Assembly: GCA_013215875.1 (NCBI GenBank)
Contig: JABSQK010000051.1
Span: 1 to 32,559 of the forward strand
From: Lentisphaeria bacterium
GTDB taxonomy: Bacteria; Verrucomicrobiota; Lentisphaeria; JABSQK01
Direction: 5' to 3'
DNA: 32,559 nt
How positions within the stretch are numbered: position 1 is the stretch's first letter; each line of letters opens with the position of its first letter. The notes below the pieces were generated by a model that saw only the letters and a list, made by a program, of their open reading frames with translations, had not been told where the DNA came from and ran no database searches. The position numbers and the translations under genes were made by a program. Of the stretch, positions 13,665 to 26,712 are shown piece after piece.

Positions 13665-14432
13665 ATGAAAGAGAGACTATTTACCATCATTTTTTGTTTA
13701 TTGGCCTTAGGAGTTTCAGCTGACACGGACAAAAAACCTAAGCCTAGAGCAATACTACTTTCAAGCATTATTAAGGATCTGGCTGAACTTGAAATAAAAA
13801 ATGTCGAGATTAATGCCACGACCCTTCCTGAGCTTATGAAGCAATTGGGGAACGGGGTGAAACCATTCGGGGAAAAACATCCCGATTTTGCGGTCATCAT
13901 CGATAGCTCCGGGCCGAAATTTAAAGTGGTCTTCAAAGCCGATCGAATCCATTTCATTGACCTGTTGAATATAGTATGTCATCAAGCGAAGCTGATGTGG
14001 TCCATTGGTCCCGGTGGCCTTGTCATTCGGCCGCAAGTTGTATACAATGATCGAATAATTACAGAAGACGATGAGCGATCACTGCCAGATGAAGGCGATG
14101 AATTATCACTGCCAGATGAAGGCGATGAAATAGTGAAAGAAGAAAAAAATAAGCCAAAGCAAAAAGCATTTGGCAAGCGATCTGCAAAAGATCCTATCGT
14201 TGTGAATGTTTTCGAAAAAGGGAAAATGTTGGTAATGGGTAAGGCTATAAGTGAAAAACAATTGTTAACAATGCTCAAAAAGGCGAAAAAAGAATATTCA
14301 AAAGTATCAGTCATAATTCGCGGGGATAAAAAAGCAAATTGGAAAAATATAGCCACTGTTATGAATGCTTGTTCAGGAGCAGGCATTGACAGAGTTAGCT
14401 CTACAGTTGAAGTTGATGCAGAAGATAAATAA
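13665..14432 (+). CDS. secreted/periplasmic protein with ExbD/TolR-like C-terminal domain
   Basis: N-terminal signal/anchor MKERLFTIIFCLLALGVSA. C-terminal ~70 aa (VSVIIRGDKKANWKNIATVMNACSGAGIDRVS) matches the ExbD/TolR periplasmic domain pattern. Internal tandem SLPDEGDE(L/I) repeat. GGGAG Shine-Dalgarno upstream. Confidence 0.6.
   Translation: MKERLFTIIFCLLALGVSADTDKKPKPRAILLSSIIKDLAELEIKNVEINATTLPELMKQLGNGVKPFGEKHPDFAVIIDSSGPKFKVVFKADRIHFIDLLNIVCHQAKLMWSIGPGGLVIRPQVVYNDRIITEDDERSLPDEGDELSLPDEGDEIVKEEKNKPKQKAFGKRSAKDPIVVNVFEKGKMLVMGKAISEKQLLTMLKKAKKEYSKVSVIIRGDKKANWKNIATVMNACSGAGIDRVSSTVEVDAEDK
14079..14132 (+). repeat. 27-bp tandem repeat x2 (26/27 identical), in frame, encoding SLPDEGDEL/SLPDEGDEI
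   Basis: tcactgccagatgaaggcgatgaatta followed by tcactgccagatgaaggcgatgaaata. Confidence 0.8.
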
Positions 14433-18099: not shown

Positions 18100-19248
18100 T
18101 TACATTTGTTCGTTGCCGGAGCCGCCGCCCCATTCTTTTTGCATAAACTCGATCATCTCTTCTTCTGAAGGGCGGTGTTGTTTATACATTTCCTGAAAGA
18201 GCAGGGAGTCGAGAATAGTGATAGCCACCATTGCTTCTACTACGGGTACTGCGCGTGGAGTAATGCAGGGATCGTGGCGACCATGCACTTCGATGGTATC
18301 ATCTTTTTTATCGACAGTGACCGTGTCCTGTTCTGTGGCAATGGACGCAGGCGGGCGTACAGCCGCTCTGATAATAATGTCTTCGCCATTTGAGATTCCA
18401 CCGTTTATGCCACCGGAATTATTTGATTTTGTGCGGATGCGTCCGTCTTCCATGTAAAATTCATCATTGAACTCATGGCCGAACATGCCAACACAGTCGA
18501 AGCCAATGCCAACTTCAAATCCCTTGATTGCACCAATGGACATGACGCCATGGGCAAGTTTTGCTTCGAGCTTGTCAAATACCGGGTCGCCGAGACCTGG
18601 AGGGCAATTGCGCACATGCACTTCAACAACACCGCCAACAGAATTTTCATCTTTTTGGGCTGCCTGGATGCGTTCAATCATCTCATCCATGACAGAGAGG
18701 TCTGGGGTGCGCACAATGTTTTCAGGTGTTTCGATAATATCGTAATCAACCGATTTGGCTTTAATGCCGGCAATTTCCCGAGAAAATCCGACAACGCTCA
18801 CACCGTAATGCTGCAGCACTTTCTTTGCGACAGAACCAGCAGCAACACGTGCTGCAGTTTCGCGGCCGGATGCACGGCCACTGCCGCGCCAATCGCGCAA
18901 GCCGTATTTGGTAAAGTAACTGAAGTCTGCATGGCCGGGACGAAATTTATGCTTGATATCGAGATAGGCGGAGGGTTCCTGATTGTTATTGCGAATCATC
19001 AGGGTGACAGGTGGGCCCATTGTTTTGCCATCGAAGACACCGGAAACGATTTCGATTTTATCTGATTCTTTCCTAGGTGTGGAGACCTTGCTTTGCCCGG
19101 GCCTGCGACGGTCCATATCTACCTGTATTTCGGCTTCACAAATCTCGATATTCGGGGGTACGCCCTCGACAATCACACCAACGGCGCGACCATGGCTTTC
19201 TCCAAATGTCGTAACTTTAAATATTGTACCAAAGGAACTTCCTGGCAT
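18100..19248 (-). CDS. aroC: chorismate synthase
   Basis: [33 protein letters not shown]-terminal signature and conserved core. GGAG Shine-Dalgarno upstream. Confidence 0.95.
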
Positions 19249-19322
19249 CTCTAACTCCTAAATAATCTCACTAAATAAAATGAGCCCAAACTCTATTCCT
19301 TAACACTTAAATGTCAATAAAT

Positions 19323-19784
19323 TCAGCCCTGCGACTTTTTCTCTTCAAGATAGTCGAGCACACAATCCATAAGATGTGGCTTGCTTAAGGCGTCTTCCAG
19401 GCTGACAAATTCTGCCCAGATGATTTCGCGCATATCAATTTGCAGGTCTGGGGCTTCATCGAGGTACAGTTCATAGAGGCAGGTGATATTGCGTGTCGTC
19501 TTTGAGGGGATTTCTTTGATAAATTTGAGTTGCTCAGTCGTTGCAGTGATGTGCGCTTCTTCGTACAGTTCACGAACGGCAGCATCGATATAGCTCTCGT
19601 TGCGGTCGACCATACCCCCCGGAAAGCCAAAATCGCGCTTATAAGAGGTCCTTAACAGCAGGATTTTTCCATCATACCAAACACCGACGAATGTCCCTCT
19701 GCTGGAAATTCGCAGGATTCTCCAGGCAATGATGGCTCCGATATATAAAACTTTGAAAACACAGCGATAGAGAAAATTGAGCAT
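19323..19784 (-). CDS. NUDIX hydrolase
   Basis: NUDIX box GGMVDRNESYIDAAVRELYEEAHI (Gx5Ex7REUxEExGU). Confidence 0.8.
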   Translation of the reverse strand: MLNFLYRCVFKVLYIGAIIAWRILRISSRGTFVGVWYDGKILLLRTSYKRDFGFPGGMVDRNESYIDAAVRELYEEAHITATTEQLKFIKEIPSKTTRNITCLYELYLDEAPDLQIDMREIIWAEFVSLEDALSKPHLMDCVLDYLEEKKSQG

Positions 19785-19877
19785 TCCAGACTATAACGTA
19801 AAAGAAGAAAGAAAAAACTAATTCCTTCGTTTGATTAAAAAAACTGTGAAAAGCCAGTTGGAACCGGTTGATTTCCA

Positions 19878-20237
19878 ATGACTTTTCTAGTATGTTCCAA
19901 GTCTGTCAAACAACGGGAGATAGTAAGTATAATGCTCAGAGAGCTCTGCGAGATCGCCATTTCAAAGCCCATGCTGATTTACACAATTCCAGCGGGGCTC
20001 AGCATCATCTATTGGATCGTCACCATTTGCGGAATATTTAGTTTTGACGGGGTTGTGGATGGGGCGGTTGACGGGCTTGTAGATGGGGCGGTAGACGGCG
20101 TGGTTGATGGCCTTGTTGATGGCCTTGTTGATGGTGCGGTAGACGGGCTTGTTGATGGCGCAGTGGATGGTGTGGTTGATGGGGCAATAGATGGGGCAAT
20201 AGATGGGGGCGCTGATTTGATTGCAGCGCTGATTTGA
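19878..20237 (+). CDS. small membrane protein with 14 tandem D-G-[AVLG]-[VIA] tetrapeptide repeats; probable N-terminal module of a split NfeD gene
   Basis: One hydrophobic helix (LSIIYWIVTICGIFSF), then (DGVV/DGAV/DGLV/DGAI)x14. Third codon positions vary synonymously, which supports real coding. Stop TGA lies inside the second copy of a 17-bp tandem duplication. Confidence 0.5.
   Translation: MTFLVCSKSVKQREIVSIMLRELCEIAISKPMLIYTIPAGLSIIYWIVTICGIFSFDGVVDGAVDGLVDGAVDGVVDGLVDGLVDGAVDGLVDGAVDGVVDGAIDGAIDGGADLIAALI
20046..20213 (+). repeat. 14 tandem 12-bp units GAY-GGN-NNN-NNN, coding, frame-preserving
   Basis: Direct reading of the sequence. Minus-strand ORFs over this region are repeat artefacts. 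Confidence 0.85.
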
Positions 20238-20244
20238 TTGCAGC
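20211..20244 (+). repeat. perfect 17-bp tandem duplication GCTGATTTGATTGCAGC x2
   Basis: The two copies are identical and adjacent. Because 17 is not a multiple of 3, the duplication shifts frame between ORF 19878-20237 and ORF 20234-20755. Confidence 0.9.
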
Positions 20245-20755
20245 ACCTCCTGGTGCGTCTGTGATGTATAAGGTGTGCAACTTAATAAACCTGGGCATGG
20301 TGCCGGCAACCATTGTATTAACCCTGCTTGTTTGGAAAATGTGGCTCATAGCCCTTTTTGGCACTTATTACTTTGGTGCAGCACTGGGAGCCAGCCTGCC
20401 CGCAATCGGCGTCTTTCTGATAATCTTCTTTATCAGCCTGATCATCGCATTCATCCTTACCATCGCAACAACATGGCCAATCAAAAAACTTTTTCAAAAA
20501 GGAGTGACTTATCATGGTCGGGAGCACTTGATAGGTGGCGAGTGTGTAATAACTTCTAGTGGTGTAGATAACTCATATGGCAGAGCAGAAGTCGCTATTG
20601 GCGGTTCACCAATTATTATAGATGTGGTGTCAGATGAAACTTTTAAGAAAGAAGACATGGCAAGAATCGTTCTGTACAATAAAGTGAAAAATACATATAC
20701 AATTGAAACTATAAATAAGGAGAGTGGTAATGGCAATATTTTATCGGAAAATTGA
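20234..20755 (+). CDS. NfeD family membrane protein (TM segments plus C-terminal OB-fold)
   Basis: Two or three TM helices, then an OB-fold region GECVITSSGVDNSYGRAEVAIGGSPIIIDVVSDETF typical of short NfeD/YuaF-like proteins. No Shine-Dalgarno before any candidate start (TTG 20234, ATG 20264, ATG 20297); CCTCC lies upstream. Overlaps the flotillin start. Confidence 0.7.
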   Translation: MIAAPPGASVMYKVCNLINLGMVPATIVLTLLVWKMWLIALFGTYYFGAALGASLPAIGVFLIIFFISLIIAFILTIATTWPIKKLFQKGVTYHGREHLIGGECVITSSGVDNSYGRAEVAIGGSPIIIDVVSDETFKKEDMARIVLYNKVKNTYTIETINKESGNGNILSEN

Positions 20756-22754
20756 GCAAGGTAAGGCCTTGATCATTAGTGGCTTGGGTAAACCGAAAGT
20801 TAAATTTAGTGGAGCGATTGTCAATCCATTTCTGGATAAAGTCGAAGTTATGGATATCTCCGTGAAGACAATTGAGATTGACCGTCGTGGGAAAAATGGT
20901 TTGATCTGTAAGGATATGATTCGCGCGGATATCATTGTCTCCTTTTATATACGTGTGAATGCTACCGAAGAAGACGTCAAGCAAGTTGCAAGTATGGTGG
21001 GTTGTGAACGTGCATCGGATATTAATACTCTGGAAACACTCTTCTCGGCAAAATTCTCCGAAGCTTTAAAAACTGCCGGAATTCGAATGGATTTTGTTGA
21101 GCTTTTTGATAACCGGGATCAGTTCAAAGAAGAAATCATCAAGGTCATCGGTTCAGATCTAAATGGTTATTCTCTGGAAGATGCTGCCATCGATTATATC
21201 GAACAAACACCGCTTGATGCGCTTGATGAAGACAACATGCAGGACTCCGAAGGTATTCGCAAGATCACCGAGATTACCTCAAAGAAGCACATCCTTACCA
21301 ATGAATTTGAAAAGGACGAAGAAAAAGAAATCACCCGTAAAAATGTTGAAACCAAAGAGACGATTTACGAATTGGAACGCCAGCAGGCAGAAGCCGAAGC
21401 CAAACAGTTACGGGAAATTGCCACTGCCCAGGCGCGCGAAGAATCACTGACTGCTCAGGTCCAGGCCGAAGAAAGGTTAAAAGCTGAGACAGCCGAAAAG
21501 AAAACCGAAGAAGAACTGGGCATAGTCGAAGAAAATAAACGCCGTGCCATAGAGCTTGCTGCAAAAGGCCGCGAACGCGAGATTGGTGTGGAATCGGAAC
21601 GTGTCGAACAGGCTCGTGAGCTGCAAGCTACAGAACGCGAACGCCTGGTTACTATCGAACAATGGCGCAAAGATAAGGACGTGGAAGTCGAGAAAAAAGC
21701 GATTCAAGAAGTGATTCGCGAACGTGTCGCACTCGAACGCTCCGTGGCAGAAGAGCAGGAAAAGATTAAAGACGTTGAAAAAATTGCGGATGCCGAACGT
21801 ACCCGCCAAGCGGATGTAATCATTGCCGAAAAAGATGCTCAGGAATTATTGGTAAGAGAAACTGTAGAGGCTGAAGCAAAAGAAATTGCCGCCAAGTTTA
21901 TTGCCAATGAAACGGTGATACTTGCTGAAGCAGATAAAAAGCAGGCCGAACATGAAGCCGAAGCTGCCATGGTGCGAGCCGCTGCAAAAATCAAAGTGGA
22001 AGCTGCCGACGGTATGGCAAAAGTGGAAGTGGAAAAAGCCGAAGCCGAAGCCATTGAGCTAAAAGGTAGAGCTGAAGCTATTGCCTTGCGTGAAATAAAA
22101 ACTGCCGAAGCGGATGGTACACTAGCAAATGGTACAGCAGAGGCAAAAGCGAAAACAGCAATGTATAACAGCGATGCCGAGGGTACCACAAAAATCGGAA
22201 CCGCAGATGCACATGCAATGGCTGCTAAGTTCGAAGCAGATGCAAATGGAATCAACCAAAAAGCGGATGCCATGAAAAACTTCGACGGTGTTGGTCGTGA
22301 ACATGAAGAATTCAAACTCGAACTGAACCTGGAAGAACGCATTAAGATTGCTGAGATCGATAAGGATCGTCAGGTTGCGGAATATCAGTCTGAGATCATG
22401 GGCGAAGCAATGCGCAGTGCCGATATCGATATCGTTGGTGGCGATGGCGTGTTCCTCGACAACTTCTTTAAGTCAATCACCCTGGCAAAATCAGTTGATG
22501 CCTTTGTGGATGAAAGTGCAGTTGCTAAAGGCTTCATCGACGGTGAAAACAAAATTGGCGAACAGCTTAAAAACCTGATTGGTGCAGAGGGTCTAAAAGC
22601 CGCAGATATTAAAGACTTGACCGTCTCTGCTCTGCTGGCAAAACTGGCACTTGAAGGAAAAAAGGAAAGCACCCGGAAAGTGGCAACAAGCTTGCAAGAG
22701 CATGTCAGCGCAATGGGTTTACAAGATCTAATGGCAATGTACCTCGCTAAGTAG
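20730..22754 (+). CDS. flotillin-like SPFH/Band-7 domain protein with long coiled-coil
   Basis: N-terminal SPFH domain (AIFYRKIEQGKALIISGLGKPKVKF...), then ~300 aa of E/A/K-rich coiled-coil. AAGGAGA Shine-Dalgarno 6 nt before ATG 20730. Classic NfeD-flotillin operon partner. Confidence 0.85.
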   Translation: MAIFYRKIEQGKALIISGLGKPKVKFSGAIVNPFLDKVEVMDISVKTIEIDRRGKNGLICKDMIRADIIVSFYIRVNATEEDVKQVASMVGCERASDINTLETLFSAKFSEALKTAGIRMDFVELFDNRDQFKEEIIKVIGSDLNGYSLEDAAIDYIEQTPLDALDEDNMQDSEGIRKITEITSKKHILTNEFEKDEEKEITRKNVETKETIYELERQQAEAEAKQLREIATAQAREESLTAQVQAEERLKAETAEKKTEEELGIVEENKRRAIELAAKGREREIGVESERVEQARELQATERERLVTIEQWRKDKDVEVEKKAIQEVIRERVALERSVAEEQEKIKDVEKIADAERTRQADVIIAEKDAQELLVRETVEAEAKEIAAKFIANETVILAEADKKQAEHEAEAAMVRAAAKIKVEAADGMAKVEVEKAEAEAIELKGRAEAIALREIKTAEADGTLANGTAEAKAKTAMYNSDAEGTTKIGTADAHAMAAKFEADANGINQKADAMKNFDGVGREHEEFKLELNLEERIKIAEIDKDRQVAEYQSEIMGEAMRSADIDIVGGDGVFLDNFFKSITLAKSVDAFVDESAVAKGFIDGENKIGEQLKNLIGAEGLKAADIKDLTVSALLAKLALEGKKESTRKVATSLQEHVSAMGLQDLMAMYLAK

Positions 22755-22911
22755 CGAGGCAGTTAATAGATTCTAGTTAATAGTTTATAGCAAAAGAGGA
22801 CCAGGGACCAGTCAAGAAAATTGAAGGTTGATCGTTTAGTGTAAACGTATACAGTAAACAAATACCAGACTGGTCTGTCCCAACTATCAACCAATAACTA
22901 TGAACTAATAT

Positions 22912-24972
22912 TCATCGTCTGATATCGTAATAGAGCACAGCATCGTCGTCGTCTTTCAGTGAATTTGAAAGAAAGTCTTTTGTGAGTTGTTTATTTCTAT
23001 CTACTGGTTCGAGCACGAGTTGGACAGTTTTTCCAATCGTCAGTTTAGCAATTGGCAGAATCTTTTTTTCCTTCATCACCCAGTGTAGCACGCGAATCTT
23101 TTTACCTTTGTATTTTCCTGAATTTACTTTGTCGACACTGTATTCAAATACGGCGAGCTCCTGGAAATAGGGTTTGATTTCATGATAGGGTTGAATGGCT
23201 GATTTTGCCAGAAGTTTGGCGCTTATCTTGAGCAGGGGAACTTTCTTGCGCTTGCTGATAGATGACTTGAAGTTTTTATAATTTCGCAGGGCAGTTTTGC
23301 CGGTCATAAATTTACTATTAACAACGACACCTTCTATGAGACCATCCCAATTATTCTTGCGACCGGGACTGCTGCCGAATACAAGTTCTGTTCCCTTCCA
23401 GCTGCCGAAACCGCCTTTGAGGGAATTAATCATTTTGGCAGTACGGCCGTTTTTAAAGCAAATCAACGTACCTGATTTGTATGTGATGATGATGTGGTAC
23501 CGTTTTGCAGTCAGTTTAAACAGTGGAATCCAGGCCTTTTCTTTCCCGGCAGTTGCCATGGAAAAGTAGAGCAGATTCTTTTTTTGTGCGAGGATAAAAT
23601 CCTGGCTGCCTTGTTTGTTGGTATTGGACATGATCTCAGCGTAGTCTTCGCCTTTTAGCTTGAGAGCGGCGGGCGTGATAAATAATTCGAGTGAGAATTC
23701 GCCGCTCTTTTTGCATGCCGATAATATATGAGCACCGGCACCTTTAGTGAAGAATGAGCCACCACGTGCATCCATGACATAGTTGTGATTTAGGTCTGCC
23801 AGGTCGCGCAGTGTAAGACCGAAGCCTTCGATTTTGATGCCCTGTTTATTGTAGACCAGTGCATCGTTTAATTTTCCGGTGGGCCAAAGAAAAAGTGCCC
23901 TGGGACTGACGGCACGATACCATTTACTTTTTTTAATGAGCTTAACCCGTTTCTTTTTAACTGGCCTTTTGGATGATGGTTTTGCTTTGCTAATTTTTTT
24001 AGAAGCCGCTGATTCAATCCAGGCATGAGCGGAGGTATCAAAAAATTGGCCTTTGCTAACTTGGACCCATTTTTCGACCTTATTGAATTCTTTGTCGAAA
24101 CGACCCAGGAAAACATTGCAGCCTTTTGTATATTTAAGCGTGTTTGGAAAGGGTCCGACAACAGTCATGAACTGCAAATGTGTAGACCACTTGGGATTCC
24201 AGTATTCACCGCCGCCATTGGGCGTGACAGTCATGGAACGGGCGCCACCGCCACCGGGATTATACATGGTGATCGTTCTATGGTTGCCGACCATGTGAAA
24301 AAATCGATAACTGTTGTCGGGAGCAATATAGGCGTTGCAACCGCTGCCATACGCTGTCCATTTCAAGGCTTTGGTCTCAGCAACGCCAACACGGGGCCAG
24401 GCAAACTCGCCGCCCATGCGGGTTCCGTCTTCTGAAGTGCTGATCCGCAGGGTGATTAGTTTTGATGTTCCTTTTGGCCAGACCACTTCTTCTTTTTTTG
24501 GATTGTCAATCTTGATCCGGATCATTGACCCACCGTATCCATTCCGCATCACATACAACCATTCTTTTTTATCCTTGGGATCTACAGAGGTGCATAGGCC
24601 ATATGAGCCGGAGGTAACAACCTTGTCGTTCTTACCATTCCAGTCGACAACATGAACCTGGTCCCCATCTCCACTATAAATTACACGCTCTCCGTCACGG
24701 GTTAAAAAAGGTACGGAAGCACGTATGGGTCCTTTGACCAAGACACGCTCTTTACCATCTTTGGTATCAAAACACATGATACTGTAGACGGAGTGATGCC
24801 CATCCGGCACCCCTTTACCCTCTACTACAGATCTCAGCCAGACGACTTTCGTATGTGCCCCTTCCGTCATTTCAAGGATTGCTTTTGTAAGGTCGTCTGC
24901 AGCGTTGGCGGAGCCCAAAGATATCAGGGCGAGTAAACTAATAACAAGAAATTGATCTGTCCAAGTCTTCAC
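22912..24972 (-). CDS. secreted protein, N-terminal beta-propeller-like region plus C-terminal LamG/concanavalin-like domain
   Basis: Signal peptide MKTWTDQFLVISLLALISLGSANA. Lys-rich linker (KKKRVKLIKKSK). Segment ...NNWDGLIEGVVVNS resembles LamG-fold proteins. Confidence 0.55.
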   Translation of the reverse strand: MKTWTDQFLVISLLALISLGSANAADDLTKAILEMTEGAHTKVVWLRSVVEGKGVPDGHHSVYSIMCFDTKDGKERVLVKGPIRASVPFLTRDGERVIYSGDGDQVHVVDWNGKNDKVVTSGSYGLCTSVDPKDKKEWLYVMRNGYGGSMIRIKIDNPKKEEVVWPKGTSKLITLRISTSEDGTRMGGEFAWPRVGVAETKALKWTAYGSGCNAYIAPDNSYRFFHMVGNHRTITMYNPGGGGARSMTVTPNGGGEYWNPKWSTHLQFMTVVGPFPNTLKYTKGCNVFLGRFDKEFNKVEKWVQVSKGQFFDTSAHAWIESAASKKISKAKPSSKRPVKKKRVKLIKKSKWYRAVSPRALFLWPTGKLNDALVYNKQGIKIEGFGLTLRDLADLNHNYVMDARGGSFFTKGAGAHILSACKKSGEFSLELFITPAALKLKGEDYAEIMSNTNKQGSQDFILAQKKNLLYFSMATAGKEKAWIPLFKLTAKRYHIIITYKSGTLICFKNGRTAKMINSLKGGFGSWKGTELVFGSSPGRKNNWDGLIEGVVVNSKFMTGKTALRNYKNFKSSISKRKKVPLLKISAKLLAKSAIQPYHEIKPYFQELAVFEYSVDKVNSGKYKGKKIRVLHWVMKEKKILPIAKLTIGKTVQLVLEPVDRNKQLTKDFLSNSLKDDDDAVLYYDIRR

Positions 24973-25203: not shown

Positions 25204-26514
25204 CTAGATATAGGTATTTACAATATTTTCCAGGTATTCTTGGCGACCACTGCGTAGTTCGGGCTCGCCAGAACTGAGTACTTGTGCATCGAGTTCATCA
25301 AAGCTACAAGTTCCTGCAAGGATTGATTTACCCAGCTCAGAATCCCAGCTTGAGTAGCGATCGGCGATTTCAGCATCTAAGGCACCATCATCAATAATTT
25401 GCTGGGCAATTAAGAGACCGCGGGCAAATGTATCCATGGCACCAATGTGAGCATGGAAGAGATCGACAGTATCTGTAGAGGCACGACGCACTTTCGCATC
25501 GAAATTAAGACCGCCTGAACCGAGACCACCTTGCTTTTGAATAATCATCATGGCATAGACTGCATCGTAGAGATTTGTTGGGAACTGGTCTGTATCCCAG
25601 CCAAGCATGACATCGCCGCGGTTAGCATCGACACTGCCCAGCAATCCGGCATTTGAAGCAATTGCCAGTTCGTGCTCAAATGTGTGGCCGGCTAGGGTTG
25701 CATGGTTGGCTTCAATATTAAGTTTGAAATGGTCGATCAGGTCGTATTCGCGCAGGAACGAAATAACGGTTGCGGAATCGTGGTCGTATTGATGTTTTGT
25801 GGGTTCGCATGGTTTTGGTTCAATAAGGAACTGGCCAGTAAAACCAATTTTCTTTTTGTAGTCCACAGCCATTTGAAGAAAGCTTGCGAATGAATCGAGC
25901 TCTTGCTTGAGGTTTGTATTAAGCAGTGTGTCGTAGCCTTCACGACCGCCCCAGAATACGTAGTTTTCGCCACCAAGTTGGGCAGTTGCATCCATGGCAT
26001 GTTTAATTTGTGACGATGCAGTAGCAAAAACACCCAGATTTGAACTCGTTCCAGCACCACAGGCATAACGTGGATGAACAAACAAACAAGCGGTTCCCCA
26101 TAGCAACTTGATACCGGTTTCATTTTGCTTCTTCTCTGCAAGGGCGACCACGTGGTCGAGATTTTTGCATGATTCAGCAAATGTGTCGCCTTCAGGGGCG
26201 ATATCGCGGTCATGGAAACAGTAGTAATCGACACCCAGCTTTTGGCAAAATTCAAAGTTTGCATCGAGGGTCATTGCAGCGATTTCGAGTGGACTACTGC
26301 CCTTATCCCAAGGACGATCATAGGTACCCACACCAAACATGTCTGCACCAGACCCTTTATATGTGTGCCAATATGCCACGGCATAGCGTAGGGTTTCACC
26401 CATTGTTTTGCCGGCAACGACCTGGTCTTTATTGAACCACTTATATGCCAGTGGATTTTTTGAATCCGGCCCTTCATATGTTACAACGTCTTTTACCTCA
26501 GTGAAATAGTCCAT
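25204..26514 (-). CDS. xylA: xylose isomerase
   Basis: Full-length match to XylA architecture (FEGPDSKNPLAYKWF..., conserved WGGREG, metal-binding His/Glu/Asp residues). AGGAG sits 8 nt before the second ATG (26514); the first ATG (26520) is only 2 nt after it. Confidence 0.93.
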   Translation of the reverse strand: MDYFTEVKDVVTYEGPDSKNPLAYKWFNKDQVVAGKTMGETLRYAVAYWHTYKGSGADMFGVGTYDRPWDKGSSPLEIAAMTLDANFEFCQKLGVDYYCFHDRDIAPEGDTFAESCKNLDHVVALAEKKQNETGIKLLWGTACLFVHPRYACGAGTSSNLGVFATASSQIKHAMDATAQLGGENYVFWGGREGYDTLLNTNLKQELDSFASFLQMAVDYKKKIGFTGQFLIEPKPCEPTKHQYDHDSATVISFLREYDLIDHFKLNIEANHATLAGHTFEHELAIASNAGLLGSVDANRGDVMLGWDTDQFPTNLYDAVYAMMIIQKQGGLGSGGLNFDAKVRRASTDTVDLFHAHIGAMDTFARGLLIAQQIIDDGALDAEIADRYSSWDSELGKSILAGTCSFDELDAQVLSSGEPELRSGRQEYLENIVNTYI

Positions 26515-26712
26515 TTCCATAACTCCTAGAATTTAAATTTATCGGTTTACTAAAGAGCTGAACATTACGAGGATTTGGGTGTTTTTCAATAGTGAGGGTT
26601 TGAATAATTGAGAATTGGCCGGGCGGTCTTGAATAGAATGCATGAAAGAGCTTGAAAAAAGCATGTTTTGGCAATAAATTACTAGTATCATTTGAATCAA
26701 AGGAATCGAATT

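Follow-up and report, generated by a model that had tools for sequence, protein, structure and literature searches.

A flotillin (SPFH) gene of the YqiK-like type occupies positions 20730-22754 on the forward strand of the window, by which we mean the whole 32,559-nt stretch of Lentisphaeria DNA that was analysed. Its 674-aa product has a Pfam Band_7 match (E 2.7e-7) and 30% identity to E. coli YqiK (E 2e-38), and the NCBI name for it is flotillin family protein. Directly upstream and in the same orientation lies an NfeD-like coding region that is divided between two open reading frames, the end of the second being overlapped by the flotillin gene by 26 nt, and the locus is thus of the yqiJ-yqiK type, an operon in which the gene for an NfeD2-class membrane protein is followed by a flotillin gene. 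The flotillin gene has its own Shine-Dalgarno sequence, AGGAG at 20718-20722 (forward strand), 7 nt before its ATG at 20730, and its translation should therefore not depend on the gene upstream.

The point of division is marked by a 17-mer, GCTGATTTGATTGCAGC, that stands on the forward strand in two adjoining copies, 20211-20227 and 20228-20244, with no further occurrence on either strand of the whole window. The duplicated unit is bordered by a 2-nt GC microhomology, and the perfect period-17 run covers 36 nt, 20209-20244 (TRF: 2.1 copies, 100% match, score 72). The chance expectation for a perfect 17-nt tandem duplication is about 1.9e-6 per window, and none of 100 Markov shuffles contained a perfect tandem duplication with a unit of at least 17. 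The length of the unit is not divisible by 3, and copy 2 contains a new stop, TGA 20235-20237, together with a TTG at 20234-20236 that overlaps it (TTGA). An earlier note on this DNA had described the perfect back-to-back duplication, had placed the stop of the upstream ORF within copy 2 and had read the two ORFs as one when a copy is taken away, and all three points were borne out: the ORF called mechanically at 19878-20237 terminates at this TGA, and removing one copy in silico yields a 286-codon frame that is open through the junction, with the same reading, ...DGGADLIAAPPGASVMYKVCNLINLGMVPATIVL..., that the note had given. A second tandem repeat in the window, at 14064-14129, has a 27-nt unit that is in frame by its length (TRF: 2.4 copies, 89% match).

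The real start of the upstream ORF is most likely ATG 19932 and not ATG 19878, because the first residue of the homologues aligns with M19; the gene caller picks the equivalent ATG on a near-identical contig from another assembly (L003, described below), and a Shine-Dalgarno-like GGGAG lies 12 nt before it on the same strand, at 19915-19919. From this start the N-terminal fragment (19932-20237, forward strand) would have 101 aa, comprising a TM helix with a conserved LYW-type motif and a tetrapeptide-repeat linker and ending in GADLIAALI before the stop. The linker, which in this family is acidic and varies in length, is encoded by a 165-nt periodic array on the forward strand at 20044-20208, in which TRF finds periods of 12, 24 and 48 nt and which translates into about 13 (V/I/L)-D-G-(A/V/L) tetrapeptide repeats.

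The C-terminal fragment (20234-20755, forward strand) can be read as 173 aa from TTG 20234 or as 163 aa from ATG 20264, which lies 27 nt downstream of the TTGA overlap with the preceding stop. It carries an LNLGxVPxT motif, two long putative TM helices and an NfeD-type OB-fold domain, and is annotated as hypothetical protein HRT89_03655 (NQZ67145.1, 173 aa). Most long ORFs of the window have AGGA, GGAG or AGGAG 6-10 nt before a plausible start. For the C-terminal ORF we found no canonical Shine-Dalgarno sequence, only GGTG before ATG 20264, and CCTCC stands just after copy 2, at 20246-20250, all of which agrees with the earlier remark that the NfeD ORF lacks a ribosome-binding site of its own. 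A promoter and terminator scan of 19700-22950 gave nothing above shuffled expectation, and no promoter-like site was found in that scan between the duplication and the C-terminal ORF.

When the repaired 286-aa sequence was used as a query, the 173-aa product of the window itself and more than 30 homologues of 220-317 aa were returned, the homologues covering 85-92% of the query and aligning collinearly across the junction. All 29 aligned homologues are single proteins built to one common plan: an N-terminal hydrophobic helix bearing the conserved motif (L)YW, followed by (hydrophobic)-D-G-A tetrapeptide repeats, then a short variable linker and a conserved LxLGxVPxT motif, and finally two long hydrophobic helices, an RP(L) motif and a beta-rich domain. 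The N-terminal fragment aligns with the N-terminal ~40% of these 29 single-ORF proteins, and removal of the lesion restores a collinear, full-length alignment to uninterrupted homologues. The tetrapeptide repeats are present in every aligned homologue in varying number, and the junction maps to the variable linker. Of 12 columns conserved in the family, the repaired protein retains 10, a measure of decay that has to be read against strains differing by only about 0.1%, and the N- and C-terminal halves are otherwise intact.

For the repaired protein, Pfam and NCBIfam returned low-complexity noise only (TrAA12, Yae1_N, FliH), Pfam scans of each half did likewise, and a sequence-profile search of PDB chains returned repeat-driven noise only, the NfeD identity being established by fold comparison and not by that search. 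In the AF2 model a five-stranded OB-fold beta-barrel is predicted at the C-terminus, preceded by hydrophobic helices at 138-164 and 170-206 with pLDDT>90; the repeat linker is modelled at pLDDT 45-55, and the junction lies within segment 98-115, at pLDDT<50. The Pfam NfeD model (PF01957) matched neither the window protein nor any of 30 family members even at E<=0.1. The window protein matched neither YqiJ_N (PF21001) nor YqiJ_OB (PF07290); among the 30 relatives, 10 gave sub-threshold YqiJ_N matches (best E 1.7e-4) and none matched YqiJ_OB. For E. coli YqiJ, which is composed of YqiJ_N plus YqiJ_OB, the two models give 58 and 54 bits. Comparison of the family profile with E. coli YqiJ by hhalign gave 93.5% probability and E 2.2e-7; the 126 aligned columns begin at the LNxG motif (LNxGxxPA), run through the membrane helices and reach into the OB domain. 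The NCBI name of one relative (P0032) is "DUF1449 family protein". We therefore file the split gene as a remote YqiJ-like protein of the NfeD2 class and not as a Pfam member; the label NfeD, which the earlier note had used, holds at the level of fold and operon and does not extend to the Pfam NfeD and YqiJ models.

The single ORF is also the norm in relatives at a much larger scale. When 1.84 billion cluster representatives were searched with the family profile, 3564, 2080 and 1003 matches were obtained at E<=1e-3, 1e-10 and 1e-30, respectively. The best 150 of these are all 220-354 aa long, almost all of them match from end to end, and none is split. With the flotillin as probe we obtained 88 orthologous loci with upstream sequence. 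In 80 of them one ORF, matching the family profile at both of its ends, lies just upstream of the flotillin; two are cut by contig ends, two have a long single ORF with a divergent N-terminus, and four lack a profile match upstream, one of these having just 200 nt of upstream sequence. The two-ORF split of the window occurs at none of the 88. Flotillin orthologues of 55, 49 and 42% identity start within 6-16 nt of the ends of three intact homologues, P0004, P0007 and P0010. The single ORF is the ancestral state. Of the proposal that a novel repeat-NfeD fusion gene had very recently been disrupted, the frameshift disruption thus stands, the homologues being uninterrupted, and the novelty does not, since a repeat joined to an NfeD-like core in one ORF is the standard architecture in more than 1000 50%-identity clusters at E<=1e-30.

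The family spans Planctomycetota, Verrucomicrobiota, Bacteroidota, Myxococcota and Acidobacteriota, where it is paired with long flotillins, and its members conserve, between TM1 and LNLGxVPxT, a linker of (hydrophobic)-D-G-A repeats whose copy number varies. In relatives the YqiJ-like-flotillin pair has further genes of membrane stress or scaffolding as neighbours. At one locus (L004:2470-3842) two tandem PspA/IM30 genes lie beside the YqiJ-like-flotillin pair, and at another (L006:1813-3216) the neighbour is a second pair, a classical NfeD (PF01957) with a Band_7 protein of the stomatin type. The closest GTDB relative found, Lentisphaeria bacterium ALOHA_ZT_20 (L015, JAKVBE010000014.1), has a flotillin that is 60% identical to that of the window and bears a 26-residue N-terminal extension. 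Upstream of this flotillin (region L015:1300-3000) there is no NfeD/YqiJ-like gene; a divergently oriented gene lies there, which we take, by eye from its sequence, to resemble NAD(P) transhydrogenase alpha (PntA). The absence of an adjacent partner in L015 indicates that partner loss occurs in this clade. Loci L056 and L100 are likewise without a detectable partner gene.

The junction of copy 1 with copy 2 is also present in three other assemblies, L002, L003 and L013, and thus in four of four with the window included, at least two further BioSamples being among the sources; none of the four has a one-copy allele. The cluster of the 173-aa product includes MCJ8330312.1, a partial protein of a second MAG, GCA_022969115.1, whose contig (L002) begins at window position 20218, within copy 1, and crosses the junction between the copies. 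Over 12.3 kb this contig and the window are 99.93% identical, nine SNPs separating them. L003 (ENA ERZ23488602, SAMN09765692) corresponds to window 19181-23313, from which it differs by 5 SNPs and, away from the duplication, by a 16-nt deletion; it has both copies followed by a 10-N scaffold gap. L013 (ENA ERZ23489796, SAMN09710611) is a 636-nt contig that contains both copies and both flanks with no gap; the SNP comparison with the window covers L002 and L003, L013 not having been compared base by base. The record prefix BOEU19-1 probably denotes, to judge from the name, the Station ALOHA 4000 m sediment-trap time series of Boeuf et al. 2019 (PMC6575173); the source samples, SAMN09765692 and SAMN09710611 among them, would then belong to PRJNA482655. 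The duplication is real in the DNA and common to several sampled populations.

Searches for the undivided form were made in protein and DNA collections. Neither the fused 268-aa nor the fused 286-aa protein has an exact entry in a collection of 15 billion proteins, and the search with the repaired 286-aa sequence did not return a near-identical fused protein. Exact-pattern scans of JGI metagenome and GTDB contigs, with patterns of one to about 2.8 copies plus both flanks, gave no match; they missed even the allele of the window itself, so that neither collection contains this organism and both are uninformative on alleles.

Several further differences among these assemblies deserve mention in their own right. 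All nine SNPs between L002 and the window fall in 82 nt, 25477-25558, with spacings in multiples of 3, within a minus-strand gene at 25204-26520 that is AP_endonuc_2/XylA2_C-like; such a pattern suggests either a short patch of recombination or, at third codon positions, a consensus drawn from mixed strains. The 16 nt deleted from L003, TGTCCCTCTGCTGGAA (window 19689-19704 against L003:505-520), have GAA microhomology at their flanks and fall in a NUDIX hydrolase ORF (19323-19784, minus strand), the called product being shortened to 96 aa, and this deletion is a second microhomology-flanked frameshift indel among near-identical strains. A contig end or scaffold gap lies within about 100 nt of the duplication in each of the three other assemblies: L002 starts at window 20218, the run of N in L003 (1051-1060, N10) corresponds to 20247-20277, and L013 ends at ~20136 and ~20771. 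L002 extends past the 3' end of the window (32559) into a gene for a 390-aa transposase (HTH_Tnp_1, rve, DDE; L002:12234-12537); an IS element probably interrupted the assembly at the point where the window stops.

The reading that we prefer overall, and consider probable though well short of certain, is that a lineage-specific slippage duplication has split a YqiJ/NfeD2-like gene and that the partner of the flotillin has thereby been lost or strongly reduced. The ancestral NfeD-like gene was a single ORF with about 268 codons, equal to 19932-20755 less 17 nt. In this deep-sea Lentisphaeria lineage its 17-bp segment, with the 2-nt GC microhomology, would have been duplicated in tandem, presumably by replication slippage. 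The event hit the disordered linker between the N-terminal TM helix with its tetrapeptide-repeat module and the TM2-TM3-OB core, and the extra 17 nt shift the frame and lead to a stop two codons later. The outcome would be the 101-aa N-terminal fragment and a C-terminal ORF devoid of a Shine-Dalgarno sequence, which could be made only via termination-reinitiation, at the overlapping TTGA or at ATG 20264, and flotillin would remain expressed from its own AGGAG and start.

As to the fate of the partner, we lean towards a young pseudogene or a crippled gene. The C-terminal ORF is preceded by no Shine-Dalgarno sequence and, from the duplication onwards, by no promoter-like site, the flotillin gene has its own AGGAG, and L015 is partnerless. 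Taken together, these observations favour loss or strong reduction of the partner over other outcomes. Against this, the TTGA overlap and ATG 20264 could permit coupled translation of the C-terminal half, and the two-copy allele is common to the populations of several samples and is therefore not strongly deleterious. Two halves that show no other decay fit a recent event, and they fit a split that still functions equally well; the strains diverge by only about 0.1%, and the intact state of the halves consequently says little. The type of mutation is an ordinary one, and neither the gene family nor the operon is new in kind.

Alternatively, the split might be functional, both pieces being made and reassembling in the membrane, with the C-terminal piece produced by reinitiation at TTGA or at ATG 20264. 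The cut lies in the lowest-confidence and length-variable linker, both ORFs are intact with their conserved residues retained, the allele persists across several samples, and the stop overlaps a candidate start, all of which would be in keeping with such an arrangement. However, the second piece would have to be translated without a Shine-Dalgarno sequence in a genome that uses them, TTG is a weak start, a split of this kind is seen at none of the 80 orthologous loci and in none of the best 150 family representatives, and the intactness of the halves is little informative at a strain divergence of about 0.1%. We regard this alternative as doubtful, if still the most serious of those considered here. 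The bolder proposition that the two-copy allele is no dead end, there being either a working two-piece NfeD-like protein obtained through TTGA reinitiation or a minority of one-copy revertants, acting as a low-frequency toggle in a particle-attached deep-sea bacterium, seems to us unlikely.

The earlier note had also raised the possibility of a reversible ON/OFF switch that works by recombination between the copies. In a switch of this kind the fused one-copy form (ON) and the split two-copy form (OFF) would be exchanged by slippage or recombination, and the flotillin partner would be modulated. Short tandem duplications can revert by slippage, and the contig breaks beside the site in the three other assemblies might reflect mixed alleles. 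These breaks could be due to the periodic array upstream, to low coverage or to copy-number heterogeneity, but the 165-nt array with its 12/24/48-nt periods explains them at least as well as mixed alleles would. Against a switch, moreover, all four assemblies are two-copy, neither one-copy DNA nor a fused protein turned up in the collections searched (the DNA scans being uninformative on alleles, as noted), the tract consists of two copies of a 17-nt unit and is not a hypermutable, multi-copy short repeat, and no recombinase or invertible-element features lie nearby. With no ON allele found, we judge a switch to be improbable.

The same note had allowed for an artefact of assembly; in that case, or with an artefact of sequencing, the genome would truly have one copy. 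The source is a metagenome-assembled genome, the site adjoins a repetitive array, and the other assemblies break nearby. The junction is nevertheless present in four assemblies of different BioSamples, two of which differ from the window by SNPs and one of these also by an indel. The longest internal repeat measures 19 nt in the two-copy form and 2 nt in the one-copy form, so that a de Bruijn graph with k of at least 21 would contain no cycle that could create a copy, which rules out that particular route, and an artefact is very unlikely. Least credible of all is that programmed ribosomal frameshifting or transcriptional slippage restores the full-length protein, for although overlapping ORFs in different frames do encode the halves of one protein, 20209-20244 has neither a slippery heptamer of the X XXY YYZ type nor a homopolymer run, the homologues are in one frame and need no frameshift, and the product would gain an insertion of 5-6 residues without counterpart elsewhere; lacking a slippery site and conservation, programmed frameshifting was rejected.

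By itself the finding is a minor one: a tandem duplication has shifted the frame of a conserved operon partner in a single lineage. For annotation it means that HRT89_03655 and the unannotated ORF upstream of it are best handled as one disrupted YqiJ/NfeD-like gene. It also offers a small natural experiment, in which the flotillin is intact although its partner of the NfeD type is split in the window and missing from a related Lentisphaeria MAG, a hint that this clade can do without the partner. A by-product of the analysis is a very large YqiJ-like (h-D-G-A)n family that current Pfam and NCBIfam models do not capture.

Among known systems, the locus resembles phase-variable contingency loci in that a repeat number sets the reading frame of a membrane-protein gene, and differs from them in having two 17-nt copies, no allele variation in four assemblies and no ON allele. 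With the short tandem duplications that arise by slipped-strand mispairing at microhomology and give split genes or young pseudogenes, it shares a perfect two-copy direct repeat, a 2-nt microhomology, a length that is not a multiple of 3, an immediate stop and uninterrupted homologues, and compared with ordinary slippage frameshifts it stands out only for its position in a disordered linker and its presence in several populations. The operon itself belongs with the conserved pairing of NfeD2 (YuaF/YqiJ) and SPFH2 (YuaG/YqiK) genes, in which YqiJ is the NfeD partner (Hinderhofer et al. 2009, PMC2636767). Compared with B. subtilis YuaF (NfeD2)-FloT/YuaG, YbbJ-QmcA and the PH1510/PH0471-stomatin pair, the window protein lacks a significant PF01957 match, and relative to YuaF and other NfeD-SPFH pairs it has an extra N-terminal TM helix and a repeat linker. 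The counterpart in E. coli is yqiJ-yqiK, a DUF1449/YqiJ inner-membrane protein with a flotillin, where yqiJ likewise lies upstream of yqiK, the gene order and orientation are those of the window, and the protein follows the same overall plan of TM helix, acidic linker, TM helices and OB fold. The window protein and its relatives fall below the Pfam gathering thresholds for YqiJ_N and YqiJ_OB, a long (h-D-G-A)n repeat takes the place of the short His/Asp-rich linker of YqiJ, and, in contrast to yqiJ, the gene in the window is interrupted by a frameshift.
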